NCBI GenBank assembly: GCA_038322045.1
Contig: JBBQFP010000008.1
Span: forward strand, 9,622-73,621
Direction of reading: 5' to 3'
DNA from: Actinomycetes bacterium
GTDB lineage: Bacteria > Actinomycetota > Actinomycetes > JBBQFP01
DNA: 64,000 bases
The notes beneath the pieces are model-generated. The model saw nothing but the letters and a program-made list of their open reading frames with translations. It searched no databases and had not been told where the DNA came from. Made by a program: the position numbers and the translations under genes. Numbering within the stretch: the stretch's first letter is position 1; each line of letters opens with the position of its first letter. Below, piece after piece: positions 4,296 to 15,087 of this stretch.

Positions 4296-5237
4296 ATGCC
4301 CGGTATCGCGATCATCGGCAACGTCAACGCCGACGTCCTGGTCTCCCCGGTGACCCGACTTCCCGTCCCGGGGGGCGACCTGCTCGTCGACGACATCGGC
4401 TTTCGCACCGCCGGCGCAGCCGGCAACGCCTCACTGGCCCTGCACACCCTCGGGGTCGAACACCAGCTGGTAGGGGTCGTCGGAGACGACCCTTTCGGCC
4501 GTCTCATGTTCGAAGAACTCGAAGCCAAAGGCCTCGCCGATCACGTCGCTGTCATCCCCGGTGGACACAGCGGGGTCAGCATCTGCCTCGAGGCCCCGCA
4601 GCGGGAGCGCGCCTTCTTCACCTCACACGGAGTACTCGCCAACTTTTCGCGAAGCTCCATCCCGGTCACCGTCGTCGACAAGGCCATCGTTCTCCTGACC
4701 GGCTATTTCACGCTCCCCGGGCTACGCAACGGCGACGCCACATCATTGCTGCGCGACGTTCGAGCCGCCGGCGGACGCACGATGTTCGACACCGGCTGGT
4801 GCCCCGACGACTGGCCCGCCAGTTCCATCACCGAGGTACGTGATCTGCTACCCCTCGTCGATGTCTTCCTTCCCAACGACGCCGAAGCCGCCGCGCTGAC
4901 CAACGGGGCCCCCCCGGAAACGGCCGCACGCATCCTCGCTCGCCTCAGCCGCGGAACCGTTGTCGTCAAGATCGGCAAGGACGGCGCACTCGCCAGCCGA
5001 TCAGGAGCCTCGACGGTGCATGTGCCGGCTCCCGAGGTCAGCGTTCAAGACACCACCGGCGCCGGCGACTCCTTCGACGCGGGGTTCGCGGTGGCGCTGC
5101 TCCAGGGCGCGGATCTCCGCGGCTGTCTCGAGCTCGGGGTAGAACTTGCTTCGGAGTTGGTGAGCCGGCCCAGCCGCGACCGGTACGCCACCCCCGCCGT
5201 GATCGCCTGCCAACCGAGAGGAAGGGTGGAGGTCTAG
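4296..5237 (+). CDS. PfkB-family carbohydrate kinase
   Basis: MPGIAIIGNVNADVL... N-terminus, and a C-terminal DTTGAGDSFDAGF motif typical of ribokinase/PfkB kinases. Starts 1 nt after the SIS gene stop. Confidence 0.8.
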   Translation: MPGIAIIGNVNADVLVSPVTRLPVPGGDLLVDDIGFRTAGAAGNASLALHTLGVEHQLVGVVGDDPFGRLMFEELEAKGLADHVAVIPGGHSGVSICLEAPQRERAFFTSHGVLANFSRSSIPVTVVDKAIVLLTGYFTLPGLRNGDATSLLRDVRAAGGRTMFDTGWCPDDWPASSITEVRDLLPLVDVFLPNDAEAAALTNGAPPETAARILARLSRGTVVVKIGKDGALASRSGASTVHVPAPEVSVQDTTGAGDSFDAGFAVALLQGADLRGCLELGVELASELVSRPSRDRYATPAVIACQPRGRVEV

Positions 5238-5473
5238 GCAAGGAGTTGCGCCTACGACGGTGCATCGTCACCAGCGGGGGACGTCGAGTTCGTCGAGGAC
5301 GAGCAGTCTCTGGTGGCGCACGTCCGGCTCACCCGCGGGGTGTCGGGCTGGTGTGGGCGACGTCAGCGTCGTTCGCCTTGGTATGACCCTGGTGGGGGAC
5401 GGCAGGCTGACGGCGAGAGGTCACCATGGCCCATCTCCACGTCGAGCCTTGCCAGGACCTTGATCAGTTCGTT

Positions 5474-5519
5474 CTTGAATCCCTCAGAGGGGTCGTGGGT
5501 TCGAGTCCACAACGCAGCC
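5474..5519 (+). other. tRNA-like 3' fragment (T-loop box GGTTCGAGTCC), not a complete tRNA
   Basis: The sequence is CTTGAAT CCCTCAGAGGGGTC GTGGGTTCGAGTCCAC AACGCAGCC. The GGTTCGAGTCC box lies at 5498-5508. The T-stem is imperfect (4 bp, 8-nt loop) and no 5' half or acceptor partner is present. It sits in a 550-bp non-coding gap. Confidence 0.3.
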
Positions 5520-5789
5520 TGGATCAGTTCTTGCCTCGGACAGGGGCTCGGGAAGAGTCTCAGCCTTGACATACCGATCGCCGGTCGTCCGGCCGACGAC
5601 GTCGAGGTCCGCAGTCGGTCAACGACCCATCGGGAGCGTCACATGCGCGTTACGAGTGACATACCCGCTTGAGCTGTGCGGGTCGCGGGATCAGCCCTCC
5701 AGCTGTGTCAGCCAGAGGTGTGCCTGGAGATTCGCGTTCAGCTACATCTCCTCACCGCCTCACCATCAGGTTCCGGTCGGCCCGCTAGC

Positions 5790-7301
5790 ATGCGCGGGAT
5801 GAGTAGCGCTTCCTTCGACCGGCTGAGGTTGTCGGCGCTGCGCTACGCCGTCAATGACGAGGCCGAGCAGTATGTCGCCGTGATGCGGGTCTTCACAGCA
5901 GGCACCGCTGGCCTGCTCTCAGACTTGTCCGCCCGCGAGGTCGCCGAACGCCTCGGCAACGAGCACGGCCTTGAGCTCGATGTTGACCTGGTCGACTCCC
6001 GGCTGTCGTACCTGGTCCAGTCGGGCAACCTGGCACGCAGCCCGCGCGAGACCGAGGCTCGCAGCATCCGGGAGTACCTCACGACCCGGGCCCGCTACCA
6101 GCTGACCCAACGCGGTGAGCTCGTCCACCGGCAGGTGGAGGAGCTGCTGAATGCCACTGATGAGGTCCGTGAGGTTTCCACCGAGATGCTCGGTGGTATC
6201 CTGACTGGGTTACGCACCCTGGCCGCATACGACGAGACGTCCCTAGCCGGGGTCGAGCCCGACGTCGTGGCTGCCCAGGTCGCCACGTTGTTCGCGCAGT
6301 TCGAGCGGCTCGTGACAAGCACCCGCGCCTTCTACGCCAGTCTCAGCCAGGTACTCGCGCGCTACGACCTGGGCCGGGAGGACTTCCAGGCCTTCAAAGC
6401 AGCGTTGCTCGACTACCTGCAGCGGTTCGTTGACCAGATCGCCCGCACGATGCCGCAGATCGGTGACCTCATTGAGGCCACCGATCCTGTTCCGCTGCTG
6501 GAGAGGGCCAACACCGGAGCGCGCCTGGTGAACCTCGACGGCTCGCGAGCGGTGCGCTCCACCGGACTGGCGGAGCAGGACTGGGCTGGGCTGACCGCCT
6601 GGTTCCTTGGGGCTCCGGGGCGACGCAGCGATGCCGAGGAGGTCCGGAGACTTGCGACGAAGGCGATGCGTGCCCTGTTGGTGAACCTGCGCAGGCTGTC
6701 GAGCAGCACCGACCGGGAGGTCAGCCGGTACGCCGACCTCCTTCGGCTGGCGCAGTGGTTCGACGCCAGCGACTCCGACCAGGCGGCTGCGCTGTGGGCG
6801 GCAGCGTTCGGCCTCTATCCCTCGCGACATCTGGGCTTCGCGGCCCAGGCCGACGGAGAACCGCTCCCGGCTACCAGCAGCTGGTGGCGGGCACCGGTGG
6901 CCGACGTCCCGGTCATGTTGCGCACCAGCGGAGAACGCAGGTCCACCGGGGCGACTGCCCGACGTGAGGACTTCACTGCCGTCAAGGCGAGACGCCTCCG
7001 CGAACGAGCCGTCTCCGAGGCGGGACGTGCCGCGGCCCTTGCTGAGCTGAAGTCTCACGCGGGCCGGCAGCTCCTGGACCTGCAGATCAGCGATGGGGCG
7101 AGGGTGCAGCTGCTGGAGCTGCACGCTCGTGCCCTGGCCGGTGCTGGTGGACCGCTGGCCGGCAAGGCGGTGGCGACCGCGGCGCTGCCGGACGGCACCG
7201 TCCTGGAGCTGCACGTCCGTCCTACGCCGGGCACGGACGCAATCATCAAGAGCCCGTCCGGCACTCTGCGTCTGCACGATCTGACCCTTGAGCTCGCATG
7301 A
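5790..7301 (+). CDS. jetA: Wadjet type II JetA (DUF2397/TIGR02677-like)
   Basis: About 500-aa helical protein starting MRGMSSASFDRLRLSALRYAVNDEAEQYVAVMRVF. It is the first gene of a four-gene, translationally coupled set (ATGA overlap with the next gene). The start could be 5790 or 5799. Confidence 0.8.
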   Translation: MRGMSSASFDRLRLSALRYAVNDEAEQYVAVMRVFTAGTAGLLSDLSAREVAERLGNEHGLELDVDLVDSRLSYLVQSGNLARSPRETEARSIREYLTTRARYQLTQRGELVHRQVEELLNATDEVREVSTEMLGGILTGLRTLAAYDETSLAGVEPDVVAAQVATLFAQFERLVTSTRAFYASLSQVLARYDLGREDFQAFKAALLDYLQRFVDQIARTMPQIGDLIEATDPVPLLERANTGARLVNLDGSRAVRSTGLAEQDWAGLTAWFLGAPGRRSDAEEVRRLATKAMRALLVNLRRLSSSTDREVSRYADLLRLAQWFDASDSDQAAALWAAAFGLYPSRHLGFAAQADGEPLPATSSWWRAPVADVPVMLRTSGERRSTGATARREDFTAVKARRLRERAVSEAGRAAALAELKSHAGRQLLDLQISDGARVQLLELHARALAGAGGPLAGKAVATAALPDGTVLELHVRPTPGTDAIIKSPSGTLRLHDLTLELA

Positions 7302-8467
7302 CGGTCGAGGACACTCAGGTGGCGGCCGAACGGCGAACCGCCTTGCGGGCGCTACTGATGCAGCCACTCCTGACGGACGAGCGGTCCGCTGACGACCTGC
7401 TGCTGGTACGGCGACACCGTGAGCACCTGATCCGGTTGTGCACCGAAGGCCTTGGTTACCGGCTGGTCGTGGAACCCAAGGCCGCCCGGCTCTACAAGGC
7501 TGGCCTCGGGCGCGACGCTACCCGTTCGTTGCGCAAGCCGATCACCCGCGGTCGGGGCCGGCGGTTCGAACCGCGCGCGTACGCCCTGCTGTGCCTGACT
7601 CTGGCAGCGCTGACCCGCTGCCCGGGGCAGCTGCTGCTCGACGAGCTCGTTGCCCAGGTCCGCAGTGCGGTCGCCGACGCCGGTCTCGACGTCGACCTCG
7701 ACAAGGCGGTCGATCGCCGAGCGATGGCGGCCGCGTTGGCGGTCCTGATTGCGCTCGGGGTGCTCGTCGAGCGCGACGGCGACTTGACCCGTTGGGTCGA
7801 GGACGGCGGGGCGCAGAGCCTGCTCGACGTACGTCGTGACCGGCTGACTCTCCTTGCCGCATCAGGCCTTTCGGGTGCGACAAGCCCCGCGGACCTGCTC
7901 GACGCGGCGGCGTTGCCGAGCGCCGCAGGTGGTGCCCGGGTCGCGGTCCGGCGGGCCTTGATGGAGTCACCGCTGCTGTCGCTGACCGACCTGACCGAGG
8001 ATCAGGCTGAGTGGTGGAGCCGCAACCGCAACCGCGAGACCGAGTGGTTCCGCGAACACCTCGGTCTCGAGCTGGAGCTGCGAGCCGAGGGAGCCCTGGC
8101 CATCGACCCCGACGAGACCCTCACGGACGTGGTGTTCCCGGGTACCGGCTCGCAGCGGCACGCCGCCCTCCTCGTCCTCGAGCAGCTCGTGGGTCTGGTT
8201 CGCGAGGATGCCCGGTCGGCCGAGCTCACCGACCGGGTATGGCGGGTCGTCCCCGAAGGCGCGTTCGAGCAGGCTGTCCGTTCGGTCGTCGCAGAGCACG
8301 GCCGCGGCCTGCGGAAGGCCTACGCAGACGCGGAAGTGCTCAGTGAGGACGTTCTCGACGTGCTGACCGAGTCAGGGCTGCTACGACGTACTGCTGACGG
8401 TCTAGCTGTTCACGCCGCGGCGGCGAGGTACGCGCCCCAGACTTCCTACGCAGAGGGACTCTTCTGA
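7298..8467 (+). CDS. jetB: Wadjet type II JetB (DUF2398/TIGR02678-like)
   Basis: 389-aa ORF between jetA and the SMC-like ATPase gene. Its start and stop overlap both neighbours. Confidence 0.8.
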   Translation: MTVEDTQVAAERRTALRALLMQPLLTDERSADDLLLVRRHREHLIRLCTEGLGYRLVVEPKAARLYKAGLGRDATRSLRKPITRGRGRRFEPRAYALLCLTLAALTRCPGQLLLDELVAQVRSAVADAGLDVDLDKAVDRRAMAAALAVLIALGVLVERDGDLTRWVEDGGAQSLLDVRRDRLTLLAASGLSGATSPADLLDAAALPSAAGGARVAVRRALMESPLLSLTDLTEDQAEWWSRNRNRETEWFREHLGLELELRAEGALAIDPDETLTDVVFPGTGSQRHAALLVLEQLVGLVREDARSAELTDRVWRVVPEGAFEQAVRSVVAEHGRGLRKAYADAEVLSEDVLDVLTESGLLRRTADGLAVHAAAARYAPQTSYAEGLF

Positions 8468-11400
8468 TGGCGCGCAACGCGTACCGCTACCGGCTGCACC
8501 GCGCCGGCATCCTCAACGTCTGGCAGTACGACGAGCAGGTGTTCGAGTTCGCCGACGGACGGCTGCTGCTCCGCGGCACCAACGGTGCGGGCAAGAGCAA
8601 GACCATGGAGATGCTCCTGCCGTTCGTGCTCGACGGGGACAAGGCGCGGATGACCGCGACCGGACGGCAGGGCAGCCAGCTGCTGTGGTTGATGAGCGAC
8701 GGCGCCGCCGCAGCGGGCACCCGCACTGGGTACCTGTGGGTCGAGTTCGCCCGCATCGATGCCGACGGCGCCCAGCACGTCGTCACCTGCGGCATCGGGA
8801 TCCGGCACTCGGCGAGTGCCAGGCAGGCCACCACCTGGCAGTTCACCGTGCCCACCACGGCACCGATGCTGTCCGAACCGGACGGCACTCCGCTGTCAGC
8901 GCCGCGCTGCCGCGAGCTCGTGGACTCCCTTGACGGCAGCAGCTTCGAGTCGCCTCGTGAGTACAAGCAACACGTGGGGCAGCTGCTGTTCGGTCTGGAG
9001 GCGCAGGCGTACGACGACCTGCTGCGACTGCTCTACTGGCTGCGGCAGCCGCAGGTCGGCGAGGACATCGACCCGGCCCGCCTGGTCGCGATGCTGGACG
9101 AGTCGCTGCCTGCGCTCGACGAGGACGCGGTCCGCCAGGTCGGCGAAGCGCTCGACGACCTCGCCGAGCACGGCGAGCGCCTCGACCGGCTTCGGGCGGC
9201 AGCGCAGGCTGTCGCACGTGCGGCCGACCTGTACGCGCGCTACGCGGCAACGCTGCTCCGTGAGCGGGCCGGCGAGGCGCTCAACGCGGAGAAGGAACGC
9301 GCGGTGCGGGCCAGGGCGGTGGGCCAGGAGGCGGCGGCGGTCACCCGGGTCGCCGAGGAGCTTGCCGCAGCCGAGGCCGCGCAGAGCCTGGCCCGTGACG
9401 AGGCAGCGAAGGCCGGGAGCCGGGTGCAGGCGCTCGAGGGCGGGCCGCTGGCACGCAACCAGCAGGTGCTCCGAGAGAAGCAGCGTCGTGCCGAGGAGCT
9501 CACCCACGCCTCCGTCGTGGCGCGGGCCGCGGCGGGGCGTGCGACGGACCGCGCCGAGGACGCCCAGGCACGGGTCACCCGCGGCGCAGGGCAGCTCACC
9601 GACCTCACCGACCAACTCAGTGCCGCCACCACGGAGGCCGGCGGTGAGCTCCGCGCCTGCGCCGTGGACGCTGCCCTGCCGACCGGGCTCCACGGGGTAC
9701 CGCAGGCCGTCGCTCTCAGCGCGGACGTGCCTGCCGTCAGGCAGTCAGTCAGCGCTGCTCGCGCGGCCGTGACCGTCGTGCGCGAGGCCACCCATCAGCT
9801 CGAGCAGGCGACCGCCCGACGTGACGCCGCCGCCCAGCGTGCCGCCGAAGCCGAGGCCCGCGAAGAGCAGGCGGCGGGCCGGCTCGCCGACAGTGAGCGG
9901 GACGCCGCAGGATTCGCGGCAGCCTGGACGGGGGCGGCCGCTCAGTGGCTGTCCGAACGACGCGACCTTGCTCTCGTCCTGCCACATCTGACCCCAGAGG
10001 CCTTGCAGAGGTGGGTTCTCACTGTCCGCGCGGCGGTGTCCCCGCTCGTGGAGCAGCTCCGCGACGAGCAGGCGACAGCGGCCGCGCGCGTCAAAGTGGC
10101 GACCACCTTGACCCGGACCCTTCGCGAACGCAGGGAACAGGTGCTCGCCGAGCGGGACCCGGCGCCTCCCGATGCCCAGCTGCCGAGGCCCGGTCGTGAC
10201 ACGACGAAAGGGACCCCGCTGTGGCGGCTCCTTGACATCAAGCCCGGCCTGGATGGCGCGCCTCTGGAGGCGGCGCTGCAGGCCTCCGGTCTGCTCGACG
10301 CCCAGGTGCTTGCTGACGGATCGGTCCTCGCAGCGGGTGACCTGGACACGGTGCTCATCCCAGCCCTCGGCCGGCAGATCCCCGGGTCAACGCTGGCAGA
10401 CGTGTTCCTCGCAGACCCGCCAGCTGGCAGCCCGGTGTCCGGGGCGACCGTCGTCCGGCTGCTCTCGTCGGTGGCACTCGTCGAGGCGGTTGGCCCGGCT
10501 GACGGTCCGGCGGTCATCGGGCGGGACGGTTCATGGCGCCTCGGTGCGCTGACCGGCCGGGCGGCCAAGCCCACCGCCCAGTACCTCGGAAGCGCAGCGC
10601 GCGCGGCCGAGCGCGCCAGGCGGCTCGCCGAGGTAGACCTGCTGCTCGAGACGGCGCAGGTAGACCTCACGGATGCAGTGACCGCGGCGCAGAAGGCTGC
10701 TCAGGAGATCGTCCGTACGCAGGACTGGAATGATCGGTTGCCCGCGTGGGAGGAGTTGCGGGTCGCCTGGGTCCGCATCGACGAGCGCAGCGCTGAGCGC
10801 GACCGGGCACAGGCCGAGGCGGGACGTCAGGCCCGGGTGCTCGCCGCCGCGACCGAGGAGTTCGCGCGGCGCACCGAGGAGCAGCGGCGGCTCTGCGCCC
10901 AGCACGACCTGCCCTCAAACCGAGCGGCACTCGAGGCGCGGGGCACCGAGCTAGCGCGGCTGGATCACCGGCTGCAGTCGCTCGGCGAGCAGGGCGAGCG
11001 TCTCCTGGTCGCGGCACGGCGGTGGGAGGAGGACAACGAAGCGGCTGAGCGGGATCAGGATGACGCACAGCTCGCCGACGTAGAGGCGAAGACCGCCACT
11101 CGGGTCGGGGAAGCTGCCGCGGGAGAGTCGAAGGCGTTGCTCGACACCCTGGGCGTCGAGGTGCAGCGGATGCAGGCCGAGCTCGACGTCGCCGCACGTG
11201 AGGCAAGTCGGGCCCGGCAGGCGCAGGAGCAGGCGGCCAAGCGGGTACTCGAGCTCACGGGCACCGCGGGGGAGCACCACGCGCGGCTCGAAGCCGCACG
11301 CCAACGGCTCGCCGACGCGCTTCCTGACGTCGCCGCCCGCTTCGGGGCAGCCGCGGCTCTGCGTGCTGTGCCTGGTCTGGTCGAGGCAGGCCTGGGACGG

Positions 11401-12462
11401 CCGCTGGAGGAGGGCGAGGCCCTGGGGCTCGACGGGCTCGACGTCATTCCCGCCCCGCGGGCGGCCCTGCAGGTCCTCAGCGGCTGGGCGGACCTGTCGA
11501 TCGACAGGCCGGTCGACGCGAATGCCGTTCACGCCGAGGTGCGCTCCCTCGCCATCGGGCCTGCCGCGGACGCCGAGCCGCGGGTCGTGCCGGTCGGCGA
11601 GGCGCTGTCGGTGCTCGGGCGGGACACCGCCGGTGCCGAAAGGCCGCTGGCCGATGTGTCTGTGAGGATGGCGGGTGAGGTGACCCGCGAGCAGGAGCTG
11701 CTCACCGAGAGGGAACGGACGCTGTTCGAAGAGCACCTGCTCGGCGAGCTGGGGGATGCGCTGCGTGCCCGCCGTCACGAGGCAACCGACCTGGTCAAGG
11801 GCATGAACGAGCTGCTCGCCGACGTCCGCACCTCACAGGGGATCCGGGTGCGTCTGGACTGGGCCTTGCGCGATGACGTCGGCGCCGATGTCCGCGAAGC
11901 GGTGGCGCTGCTCGGCAGGGCCCGCGGCTCGCTCACCCCCGACGAGTCAGACCGCCTTCGCGACGCCCTCGGGGGATTGATCGAGGTGCAGCGCGCAGCA
12001 GAGCCCGAACGGGGCTACGCCGAGCACTTGGCCCGCGCGCTGGACTACCGGCGCTGGTCCGCGTTCGCGGTCCGCCTTCACCGGCCAGGTGCGGAGACCT
12101 GGACCACCTTGACCCGTCGTACCCCGCTCTCCCAAGGCGAGCAGAAGGTCGTCTGTTACCTGCCGCTCTTTGCGGCGGCCGCGGCGCACTTCACCTCCGT
12201 CGCGGGGGCAGCTCCCCATGCCCCCAGGCTCATCCTGCTCGACGACGCCTTCCCGAAGATCGACGTGCGCACGCACCCGCTGCTGTTCGGGTTGCTCGTC
12301 GACCTTGACCTGGATTTCGTGCTGACCAGCGAGCGCCTGTGGGGCGACCACGCGACGGTCCCGTCGCTGGCGGTGTACGAGGCGCTGCGCGCACCGGGTG
12401 AGCGGGGGATCGCGCAGTACCGGTACACCTGGGACGGCCGCACCTTGGTCGCTGTTGGATGA
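8467..12462 (+). CDS. jetC: Wadjet JetC, SMC/MukB-like ABC ATPase with long coiled coil
   Basis: 1331 aa. N-terminal Walker A (LLLRGTNGAGKSKTMEML). About 900 aa of Ala/Glu/Arg-rich coiled coil. C-terminal SQGEQKVVCYLPLFAAAAA signature-like motif and Walker B PRLILLDDAFPKID. Confidence 0.9.
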   Translation: MARNAYRYRLHRAGILNVWQYDEQVFEFADGRLLLRGTNGAGKSKTMEMLLPFVLDGDKARMTATGRQGSQLLWLMSDGAAAAGTRTGYLWVEFARIDADGAQHVVTCGIGIRHSASARQATTWQFTVPTTAPMLSEPDGTPLSAPRCRELVDSLDGSSFESPREYKQHVGQLLFGLEAQAYDDLLRLLYWLRQPQVGEDIDPARLVAMLDESLPALDEDAVRQVGEALDDLAEHGERLDRLRAAAQAVARAADLYARYAATLLRERAGEALNAEKERAVRARAVGQEAAAVTRVAEELAAAEAAQSLARDEAAKAGSRVQALEGGPLARNQQVLREKQRRAEELTHASVVARAAAGRATDRAEDAQARVTRGAGQLTDLTDQLSAATTEAGGELRACAVDAALPTGLHGVPQAVALSADVPAVRQSVSAARAAVTVVREATHQLEQATARRDAAAQRAAEAEAREEQAAGRLADSERDAAGFAAAWTGAAAQWLSERRDLALVLPHLTPEALQRWVLTVRAAVSPLVEQLRDEQATAAARVKVATTLTRTLRERREQVLAERDPAPPDAQLPRPGRDTTKGTPLWRLLDIKPGLDGAPLEAALQASGLLDAQVLADGSVLAAGDLDTVLIPALGRQIPGSTLADVFLADPPAGSPVSGATVVRLLSSVALVEAVGPADGPAVIGRDGSWRLGALTGRAAKPTAQYLGSAARAAERARRLAEVDLLLETAQVDLTDAVTAAQKAAQEIVRTQDWNDRLPAWEELRVAWVRIDERSAERDRAQAEAGRQARVLAAATEEFARRTEEQRRLCAQHDLPSNRAALEARGTELARLDHRLQSLGEQGERLLVAARRWEEDNEAAERDQDDAQLADVEAKTATRVGEAAAGESKALLDTLGVEVQRMQAELDVAAREASRARQAQEQAAKRVLELTGTAGEHHARLEAARQRLADALPDVAARFGAAAALRAVPGLVEAGLGRPLEEGEALGLDGLDVIPAPRAALQVLSGWADLSIDRPVDANAVHAEVRSLAIGPAADAEPRVVPVGEALSVLGRDTAGAERPLADVSVRMAGEVTREQELLTERERTLFEEHLLGELGDALRARRHEATDLVKGMNELLADVRTSQGIRVRLDWALRDDVGADVREAVALLGRARGSLTPDESDRLRDALGGLIEVQRAAEPERGYAEHLARALDYRRWSAFAVRLHRPGAETWTTLTRRTPLSQGEQKVVCYLPLFAAAAAHFTSVAGAAPHAPRLILLDDAFPKIDVRTHPLLFGLLVDLDLDFVLTSERLWGDHATVPSLAVYEALRAPGERGIAQYRYTWDGRTLVAVG

Positions 12463-13601
12463 CCCTGCCCTCATGGCTTGCGGATCCATTGCTGGAGCCG
12501 GTGTGGCGCCGACTTCGGGCACCTGTGGAACGCGGGGCGAGGACGACCCGACTCGCGGGGCTGGACCGACCGACGCGGCATGCTCTGTCAGCTCTGCTGG
12601 GTCGCCCGGTCACCGGTGATTTCACCGTGGTGCTGAACGACTTGGAGGCTCTGCTGGAAGCACGGGCGGGGATCGGCCTCGCGGAGGTGGTCGAGGCCGC
12701 GACCGGTCCGTTGCGGGACCGCGCCGCCGAACGGGCCGCGAGACTGGCGCCGCTCTCAGCTCTGTCCGCGGTCGATCCGGAGTGGGCGCGGCGGGTGCGC
12801 AGCAGCGGGATCCTCACACGGGTTGTCGACCCCATAGGCCTTGTGTTGCAGGCGATCGCGATCCGGGAGCAGCTTCCCGGGGACCTCCGGCTTCGGACCG
12901 AGCTCGCGGCCTCGGTGACTGGTGACGCACACGCACTGGACGAAGGACGACCATTGGCGGGGCTGGTCCTCCGGGGTCTGCTGGAGACGCTGCCGGCCAC
13001 GAGCGGGGAACGGCGAGCCGTATGGGAATCGTTCGGCGTCCTGTCCGACACGGTGTCGACGTCCGTGCTCACCTTGGGACTGCGACCTCGAGCAGGCGGT
13101 GCGCGCGAGCGGGCACTGTGCGCAGCGGCCGAGGTCGGCGACCCAGTGCCCGTGACGCCTTGGACGCTTCGCAGGATGGGTTCTGACCTGGGAGTCGGCG
13201 CGGTGCTGGTCGTCGAGAACCCCTCAGTCCTGGAGGCCTTTGCCGGACGACATGGTGGGCGGTTCCCGGTGGTGTGCACGTCAGGATGGCCGTCCCTCGT
13301 CGCGGTCGATCTGCTCCGCAGGCTCGCAGGGCCGCTGAGCTACCACGGTGACTTCGACTGGCGGGGCGTGGAGATCTGCGGCTGGTTGCAGCAACAGGTC
13401 GGCGTCGTGCCCTGGCGGATGACTGTGGAGGATTACCGGGACGCCCCGGGCGGCGCCCCACTGGAGGGCAGGAGTGTGTCAACGCCTTGGGAACCCATGC
13501 TTGCGGAGGCGATGGCGCAGCGGGGGCTGGCCGTGCACGAGGAGCAAGTGGTTGGGTCACTGCTCGACGGCTGGATGAACGAGGCTGGGCCAACCGCCTG
13601 A
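12459..13601 (+). CDS. jetD: Wadjet JetD, Toprim-like nuclease subunit (DUF2399/TIGR02679-like)
   Basis: 380 aa with an ATGA overlap with jetC. The C-terminal LVVENPSVLEAF ... YHGDFDWRGVEI resembles the Toprim-type motifs of JetD/MksG. Confidence 0.85.
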   Translation: MTLPSWLADPLLEPVWRRLRAPVERGARTTRLAGLDRPTRHALSALLGRPVTGDFTVVLNDLEALLEARAGIGLAEVVEAATGPLRDRAAERAARLAPLSALSAVDPEWARRVRSSGILTRVVDPIGLVLQAIAIREQLPGDLRLRTELAASVTGDAHALDEGRPLAGLVLRGLLETLPATSGERRAVWESFGVLSDTVSTSVLTLGLRPRAGGARERALCAAAEVGDPVPVTPWTLRRMGSDLGVGAVLVVENPSVLEAFAGRHGGRFPVVCTSGWPSLVAVDLLRRLAGPLSYHGDFDWRGVEICGWLQQQVGVVPWRMTVEDYRDAPGGAPLEGRSVSTPWEPMLAEAMAQRGLAVHEEQVVGSLLDGWMNEAGPTA

Positions 13602-13747
13602 TGGTCACCCACCGGCTCGGCGGGTGCGGGTGATCTCTGGGTCGTTGTCCAAGCGGATGCGCCTGCTCGCACTTCTCGGCATGCGACCCCAGATCACCAA
13701 CGCCGACTGGGCCACTACTAGACAATGACAGGTACTGGGCATAGTGT

Positions 13748-14119
13748 GTGCACGTGACCCCGACGCATGACCCTCAACAGCTCAAGGGTGTCTTGTCGAT
13801 GCTGATCCTGCGCCTGCTGGCCGATCGCGAGTCCTACGGCTACGAGCTCGTCCAGCGGCTTCACGACGTGGGCCTCGCCGGCATCAGCGACGGCAGCGTC
13901 TACCCTGCGCTGGCCCGGCTTGAGCGCGAAGGACTCATCGGCTCCCGCCTCGTCGCGTCGACGTCGGGGCCGGCCCGCAAGTACTACCGCCCGACACCCG
14001 ACGGCTACGCCGCCTTGCACGAGCTGACCGGGAGCTGGCTCGCGCTGGCCGACATGGTCACGCCGGTCGTGACCGGTTCCGTCCCCGCCCACCCCGCTGC
14101 TGTCTCAGAGGAGCACTGA
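13748..14119 (+). CDS. PadR-family transcriptional regulator
   Basis: LKGVLSMLILRLLADRESYGYELVQRL ... GSVYPALARLEREGLI ... ARKYYRPTPDG is the classic PadR winged-helix signature. Confidence 0.85.
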   Translation: MHVTPTHDPQQLKGVLSMLILRLLADRESYGYELVQRLHDVGLAGISDGSVYPALARLEREGLIGSRLVASTSGPARKYYRPTPDGYAALHELTGSWLALADMVTPVVTGSVPAHPAAVSEEH

Positions 14120-14763: not shown

Positions 14764-15087
14764 TCAGCTCAGGCACCGGGGACGACAAGACCAGCCTCGT
14801 ACGCCGCGATGACTGCTTGAGTTCGGTCGCGCACCCCGAGTTCGGTCGCGCACCCCGAGTTTGGTGAGCACAGCGGTGACGTGTGACTTGACGGTCTCGC
14901 GACTCACGACCATGGACGCCGCAATCTCGTCGTTGGAGCAGCCCTGTGCCAGGAGCACGAGAGCCTCCCGTTCGCGCGTGGTCAGGGCGGCAACGCGAAG
15001 CGCCGAGGCCGCATCGATTCGTGCCGCTGAAGCGACAAGCTCACGGGTGGACTCGGGGACGACGAGCGAGTCACTGTCCGCGACCAC
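14764..15087 (-). CDS. Small LuxR-type HTH protein whose C-terminal helix is replaced after a 19-bp tandem duplication
   Basis: TTREREALVLLAQGCSNDEIAASMVVSRETVKSHVTAVLTKLGVRDRT is a LuxR/GerE HTH. After the duplication the frame reads RGARPNSSSHRGV.... Removing one repeat copy restores ...KLGVRDRTQAVIAAYEAGLVVPGA*. Confidence 0.7.
   Translation of the reverse strand: MVADSDSLVVPESTRELVASAARIDAASALRVAALTTREREALVLLAQGCSNDEIAASMVVSRETVKSHVTAVLTKLGVRDRTRGARPNSSSHRGVRGWSCRPRCLS
14819..14861. repeat. 19-bp tandem duplication (about 2.3 copies of GTTCGGTCGCGCACCCCGA) inside the LuxR gene
   Basis: Read directly from the sequence: units at 14821-14839 and 14840-14858, flanked by partial copies. Confidence 0.9.

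Follow-up and report, generated by a model that had tools for sequence, protein, structure and literature searches.

A type II Wadjet (JetABCD) operon in an actinomycete: a clade-wide variant of the JetC ATPase site and signs of spread as a compact cassette

Wadjet systems are present in 42% of Actinobacteria (PMC10482375). The reconstituted type II system of N. vireti, nvJET-II, has a motor unit of composition JetA1B1C2, in which JetB is a tandem-KITE protein of 388 residues, and cuts circular, not linear, DNA at random positions in a reaction that requires ATP, JetD and Mn2+ (10.1101/2025.03.10.642339). In Mycolicibacterium smegmatis, loss of EptABCD raises plasmid transformation (PMC10586767; PMC11329512). 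Here we describe the jetABCD locus carried by a stretch of 64,000 nucleotides, hereafter the window, which is part of contig C8 (JBBQFP010000008.1) of an actinomycete assembly (GCA_038322045.1) of 3.04 Mb in 105 contigs, with 72.4% G+C, 88.6% completeness and 0.09% contamination. Window positions 5799-13601 very probably encode an intact type II Wadjet anti-plasmid system of the JetABCD-II or EptABCD type, to which we infer a role in plasmid restriction. The locus itself is of little import, being a textbook type II operon and an ordinary example of a defence family that is among the commonest in Actinobacteria. Its points of wider interest are only the clade of JetC ATPases to which its motor belongs, recognized by D-D in Walker B and SQGE in the signature motif, and the operon-precise spread of the cassette.

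Protein profile searches assign the four gene products to their expected families, in agreement with the first-pass annotation, a reading of the sequence without database searches that had proposed a complete type II Wadjet system. Scores above the curated Pfam and TIGR02677-02680 cut-offs and matches to the PADLOC type II models were obtained for all of them, the PADLOC profiles being covered over nearly their full length. JetA scores 362 bits against Pfam DUF2397 (PF09660, cut-off 28.5), 206.3 bits against TIGR02677 (cut-off 165.85) and 532 bits against PADLOC JetA2, and phmmer relates it to N. vireti JetA (9qe0_E, E=3e-16). The corresponding values for JetB are 297.7 bits for DUF2398 (PF09661), 161.8 for TIGR02678 (cut-off 124.65) and 342 for JetB2. 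Residues 36-346 of the 389 in JetB align with residues 37-338 of nvJetB (9qe0_D, E=3.4e-05) across both lobes; its double length fits a tandem KITE protein, a fold that is putative here. JetC reaches 808 bits with TIGR02680 (cut-off 462.85) over profile positions 1-1354 of 1356 and 1058 bits with PADLOC JetC2 over positions 11-1352 of 1361, together with a Pfam SbcC_Walker_B match and homology to N. vireti JetC (9qe0_A, E=1.4e-75). JetD matches Pfam DUF3323 and DUF2399, TIGR02679 (222 bits, cut-off 196) and PADLOC JetD2 (333 bits). Chains of the N. vireti type II Wadjet (9QE0/9QE1) are the sole PDB sequence matches of JetA, JetB and JetC. With the PADLOC models for type I, JetD gives a weak match (E about 1e-5 to 1e-6) and JetA, JetB and JetC give none. 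The operon was also described as the only clear defence locus of the window, and no further PADLOC match was found among the eight other large open reading frames (ORFs) tested there. TIGR02680 is present in 66-72 of 401 sampled Actinomycetes genomes (~17%).

The four genes are contiguous on the plus strand (Table 1) and overlap by 4, 1 and 4 nt. Their translational coupling, noticed at first pass, is seen at each junction: jetA/jetB (GCATGACG) and jetC/jetD (GGATGACC) are ATGA overlaps, and jetB/jetC (TTCTGATGG) is a TGATG with one base in common. Besides the two starts listed in Table 1, the jetA ORF has a possible start at 5676. Position 5799 begins an ATG or GTG in six of six aligned homologous loci, and 5790 an ATG in four of six; 500 residues is also the length of a relative's gene call and of the N. 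vireti JetA chain. On these grounds 5799 is preferred as the putative start, the choice against 5790 being ambiguous. Two repeats lie 3' of the jetD stop, both without a T-tail: a short GC hairpin (CACCC...GGGTG) at about 13606-13626 and a long inverted repeat at about 13629-13705 (GGTGATCTCTGGGTCG ... CGACCCCAGATCACC).

Table 1. Features of the jetABCD locus and its surroundings (window coordinates)
Feature	Position	Strand	Remarks
Horizontally shared cassette span	5779-13607	+	nearly exactly the operon; blastn and flank alignments
jetA	5799-7301	+	kleisin, DUF2397/TIGR02677, 500 residues; alternative ATG start at 5790 gives 503 residues
jetB	7298-8467	+	tandem-KITE-sized subunit, DUF2398/TIGR02678, 389 residues
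jetC	8467-12462	+	SMC/MukB-like ABC ATPase, TIGR02680, 1331 residues
jetD	12459-13601	+	aCAP-like N-domain DUF3323 and Toprim DUF2399, TIGR02679, 380 residues
JetC Walker A, GTNGAGKS	8575-8598	+	residues 37-44
JetC signature, LSQGE	12127-12141	+	
JetC Walker B, LILLDDAF	12229-12252	+	D1259-D1260 at 12241-12246
JetD Toprim E253	13215-13217	+	
JetD Toprim D298-x-D300	13350-13358	+	
AbiEii/DUF6036-like nucleotidyltransferase pseudogene remnant	5417-5694	-	divergent from jetA; tblastn
T-arm-like motif, GGGGTCGTGGGTTCGAGTCCA	5487-5510		generic T-arm consensus of several tRNAs, 18-21 nt
GerE/LuxR helix-turn-helix stand-alone ORF	14764-15087	-	107 residues; 19-bp unit in 2.5 tandem copies at 14819-14865, near the 3' end

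Pairwise comparison with five homologous operons gives ratios of nonsynonymous to synonymous substitution rates (dN/dS) of 0.09-0.20 for all four genes, JetC being at 0.15-0.20. There are no in-frame stops in the five homologues; the lone stop symbol in the jetD row of locus L013 (GCA_038230355.1) is the gene's own stop, its JetD having 373 residues. Because of the full-length profile matches and of these dN/dS values, the operon is read as an intact system under purifying selection. The dN relative to L013 climbs along the operon (JetA 0.074, JetB 0.075, JetC 0.12, JetD 0.16), and JetC and JetD diverge faster by this measure than the kleisin and KITE subunits.

The nuclease subunit keeps its active site. 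The motifs ENPSV (residues 253-257) and YHGDFDW (residues 295-301) quoted at first pass are found in JetD, and an alignment of 20 homologues displays invariant E253-N-P and G297-D-x-D-W (D298, D300), the Toprim glutamate and DxD being intact. JetD gave nothing relevant in searches of the PDB by sequence or with a profile of the 20 sequences. An AlphaFold2 model derived from the same 20-sequence alignment has a mean predicted local distance difference test (pLDDT) of 89. Its best Foldseek matches, with probability 1.0, are MksG of C. glutamicum (8b7f), JetD of P. aeruginosa (7til), topoisomerase VI-A and Spo11. The link of the protein to MksG and JetD thus comes from structure prediction and Foldseek, and not from the sequence and profile searches.

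The ATPase site of JetC departs from that of nvJetC. The two motifs quoted in the first-pass annotation are found, GTNGAGKS at residues 37-44 and LILLDDAF at 1255-1262. The former is an intact Walker A (it fits GxxGxGK[ST]) with K43 and S44 invariant. The latter had been taken for a canonical Walker B ATPase motif, which it is not: it reads D-D instead of D-E, and this state is fixed in the clade. In the HMMER alignment LDDAF lies over LDEAF of nvJetC and the position of the catalytic glutamate is occupied by an aspartate (D1260). The signature LSQGE, compared to FSGGE in nvJetC and to the canonical LSGG[EQ], retains the serine and the second glycine, the first glycine being changed to glutamine. 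The D-loop is intact.

The two changes occur together in a large group of JetC proteins. DDAF and LSQGE are found in 119 of 119 close homologues, and the TIGR02680 proteins of the 401 Actinomycetes genomes split into a D-D/SQGE and a D-E/SGGE group, the former making up roughly half of the JetC-II proteins sampled from actinomycetes. In a maximum-likelihood tree of 28 JetC, the 13 D-D sequences are monophyletic (support 97/97), with deep inner branches and members drawn from seven or more families, and D-E is retained in the sister clades and in the outgroup. A survey of the best 80 loci of the clade in the GTDB species set found both changes in all 74 complete clade loci, and cultured carriers include Pseudonocardia, Nocardioides, Arthrobacter, Pseudarthrobacter, Terrabacter, Knoellia, Microlunatus and Nostocoides. 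Conservation of the head domain is very strong among clade members, and the clade departs from the D-E clade at four sites together: Walker A (G-x-N-G-A-G-K-S vs G-N-N-G-T-G-K-S), signature, Walker B and D-loop (P-K-I-D vs A-G-V-D). The protein with the highest TIGR02680 score in the sample (L015, 1451 bits) is also D-D, so that this state does not affect family membership. Since D-D/SQGE is fixed throughout one deep clade, it is not a product of decay of the locus studied here.

It has to be considered whether the operon is a decaying or inactive relic whose JetC lacks the Walker B catalytic glutamate. LILLDDAF does lie over IISLDEAF of N. vireti JetC and some neighbours are decayed, namely a nucleotidyltransferase pseudogene and a GerE ORF with a 19-bp duplication, but a relic is very unlikely given the invariance of D-D and SQGE in a deep, well-supported clade that spans many families and cultured genera, the high conservation of the head, the full length of the four genes relative to the profiles and the purifying selection, the JetC ratio included. 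Other points weigh against a functional anti-plasmid system. The canonical Walker B glutamate is missing from JetC, with D1260 in its place, and a glutamate-to-aspartate change there usually lowers ABC ATPase hydrolysis strongly. No functional data were found for the locus or for any member of the D-D clade. Consensus scans, which are weak at 72% G+C, detected no sigma-70-type promoter and no intrinsic terminator, and the fragmentation of the source genome (105 contigs, 88.6% complete) limits checks of expression and copy number.

An aspartate at the Walker B glutamate position is natural in the low-turnover "degenerate" sites of ABC proteins, and hydrolysis falls when the change is engineered. 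JetC of the D-D clade is probably a working ATPase, kinetically altered and not dead. We found no paper that mentions the D-D/SQGE change in type II Wadjet JetC. If hydrolysis were slowed or re-gated in both symmetric sites, the cycle could differ from that of nvJET-II and of type I systems, and possible outcomes would be another size limit for DNA or an engaged state that persists and licenses JetD. That D-D/SQGE motors have a remodelled site running a different extrusion or sensing cycle, in operons that spread as precise cassettes without flanking mobility genes, is a tentative proposal that we regard as doubtful. The clade-wide site poses a testable question on how type II Wadjet motors use ATP.

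The proposed mode of action is drawn by homology from the reconstituted N. vireti type II and E. coli type I systems. Two JetC ATPase dimers, each closed by the kleisin JetA and bearing one tandem-KITE JetB, would be paired through JetA to build a double motor. This motor would load on DNA and use ATP to extrude loops. On a small circle extrusion would run to completion, and the stalled complex would then license the JetD Toprim nuclease dimer to cut without sequence specificity, so that the plasmid would be linearized and lost. The large chromosome and linear DNA would escape cutting. The architecture of the complex, loop extrusion, the rule of size and circularity and plasmid restriction are thus predicted features of the system in this organism.

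Copies of the operon in other contigs delimit a compact unit. In blastn, the L044 locus (88.8% identity) matches C8:15400-23228, which corresponds to window positions 5779-13607, and the L013 locus (78.8%) matches C8:15400-23196, or 5779-13575. Similarity sets in about 20 nt ahead of the start codon and ceases, in flanks that can be aligned, about 6 nt past the stop. In L044, a metagenome contig of 131 kb, the operon lies between an AMP-binding enzyme and an SIS/ABC sugar operon. In L013 a TrwC relaxase with HipBA is found on one side and a HAD hydrolase on the other. The L013 operon follows directly the TrwC-type relaxase and a divergent HipBA pair (L013:1975-7143), a position that places it on or next to a mobilisable element. 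The copy of G023, a metagenome-assembled genome (MAG) of the Sporichthyaceae (contig JANMWN010000197), is 89% identical over 7977 bases that comprise a nucleotidyltransferase gene and jetABCD, while core proteins of G023 and of the source genome are 58-61% identical.

A second copy is found in the source assembly itself. It consists of jetA, jetB and codons 1-390 of jetC at C48:17366-21288, with 91.2% nucleotide identity, and reaches the end of the contig; its JetC residues 391-1331 and its JetD were not found elsewhere in the assembly by tblastn or blastn. Two Wadjet loci in one genome are plausible because C48 bears core genes that are single-copy in the assembly and because several other Actinomycetes carry two full JetC-II genes. 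The C48 copy is positioned 7 kb downstream of a tRNA-Met gene (C48:9999-10073), an rve/Mu-type transposase, an ABC-2 transporter pair and a beta-lactamase-family gene lying between them.

The operon is found in five different, unrelated contexts, and in the window it is not flanked by an integrase, a transposase or a repeat. None of the 400 other genomes searched is closer to the source genome than the same class. The existence of operon-precise, ~90% identical copies in unrelated contexts and distant hosts provides good support for a horizontal acquisition of the operon, which travels as a bare cassette. One possible route is homologous recombination that replaces the alleles of Wadjet loci already present. 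The ~90% identical copies in five unrelated contexts offer a clean case in nature of a defence operon that moves in this form. Of the island-like acquisition suggested in the first-pass annotation, horizontal transfer is retained and the evidence sought in a tRNA fragment is not.

This distribution also bears on whether the operon could encode a housekeeping MksBEF-like condensin organizing the host chromosome. Wadjet and MksBEF/MukBEF are kin and domestication has been proposed, but the presence of a full-length jetD translationally coupled to jetC, with its Toprim residues intact, makes such a role even less probable than that of a relic. The operon is moreover patchy, occurring in about 17% of sampled Actinomycetes, and hosts with only 58-61% identity between their core proteins share it at 89-91% nucleotide identity. 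Together with its five genomic contexts, this is what would be expected of an accessory system that moves horizontally.

The gap of ~550 bp upstream of the operon is real. On its far side are an ABC sugar-uptake operon, an SIS protein and a PfkB kinase ending at 5237. The gap holds the remnant of a nucleotidyltransferase gene, which was detected by tblastn of the window with the intact 216-residue homologue of G023 (L010:7927-8577). Its three pieces are in three frames, with one internal stop and a deletion of about 72 residues between the last two: residues 1-20 at 5694-5635 (with the stop), residues 66-102 at 5618-5508 (70% identity) and residues 175-216 at 5545-5417 (84% identity). The intact G023 protein has weak DUF6036 and AbiEii matches, just under the cut-offs.

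The tRNA-like fragment that had been noticed in the gap, GGGGTCGTGGGTTCGAGTCCA, does match a T-arm consensus over 18-21 nt, but it belongs to the coding remnant of the nucleotidyltransferase and no tRNA is present. Its T-stem cannot close. The motif is conserved in G023 inside the intact minus-strand ORF of 216 residues divergent from jetA, and its minus strand encodes W-T-R-T-H-D-P of the nucleotidyltransferase; for this reason the upstream gap is a pseudogene and not an attachment scar. ARAGORN and Rfam found no tRNA or other Rfam match anywhere in the window. The interpretation as a tRNA or attachment scar was rejected on these negative searches, on the motif not deriving from tRNA-Met and on its coding nature. 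The case is cautionary, as a conserved 21-nt tRNA-like string may be plain coding sequence.

The weakest of the explanations considered, that the locus was carried in by an integrative island targeting a tRNA gene, the T-arm-like fragment being its scar, could appeal to the 21-nt motif, to the C48 copy downstream of tRNA-Met and adjoining the rve/Mu-type transposase, and to the closeness of the G023 copy to a tRNA-Met 3' fragment, but it is hardly credible with a window motif that is not from tRNA-Met and lies in the remnant of a gene intact in G023, with no tRNA, integrase or direct repeat near the operon in the window, and with similarity to two other copies that ends within about 20 nt of the operon ends. 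The tRNA-Met fragment of G023 is a separate observation: L010:9766-9882 carries about 53 nt of the tRNA-Met 3' end and its downstream flank, 87% identical to C48:10021-10137, and no intact tRNA is present on the G023 contig. The fragment resembles the attR of another element that has integrated at tRNA-Met in this MAG.

In G023 the nucleotidyltransferase gene overlaps a gene for a 329-residue protein, the pair (L010:7927-9547) being divergent from jetA. No Pfam or PADLOC family was found for the 329-residue protein and no PADLOC match for the nucleotidyltransferase; the two may be a toxin-antitoxin-like module. The pair has decayed differently next to the two copies of the source assembly, leaving the pseudogene in the window and, on C48, a deletion that spares only the last 40 codons of the 329-residue protein gene.

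Downstream of jetD, the patch of decaying genes reported at first pass is only partly such. It opens with an intact PadR gene (13748-14119). The GerE ORF carries the 19-bp duplication (Table 1), and the remaining ORFs examined from 14.1 to 15.9 kb (~1.8 kb) match no Pfam family. A methyltransferase and then an MBL-rhodanese protein are encoded beyond this stretch. The G+C content is 63-71% over the first 30000 positions of the window and 70-77% over its second half, the genome standing at 72.4%, and the whole left part may be accessory DNA.

Among described systems, EptABCD of M. smegmatis is likewise an actinobacterial JetABCD/EptABCD system, which we take to be of the TIGR02677-80 type; EptC is not among the best 80 loci of the D-D clade. 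The type I Wadjet or MksBEFG systems (E. coli GF4-3, P. aeruginosa JetABCD, C. glutamicum MksBEFG) resemble the present locus in combining an SMC motor, a kleisin, a KITE protein and a Toprim nuclease, and the best structural matches of the JetD model, MksG and JetD, belong to them. They differ in their Pfam and TIGRFAM families, in a single-KITE JetB of about 240 residues, in a shorter JetC and in another N-domain of JetD. In nvJET-II the sequences are distant, as exemplified by JetB, and the motor has LDEAF, FSGGE and AGVD where the JetC of this high-G+C actinomycete has LDDAF, LSQGE and the D-loop PKID. Yet the same four families are found in the same gene order, with similar protein lengths (JetA 500 residues in both, JetB 389 here vs 388-389, JetC 1331 here vs 1371), and JetD has here the aCAP and Toprim fold predicted for type II.

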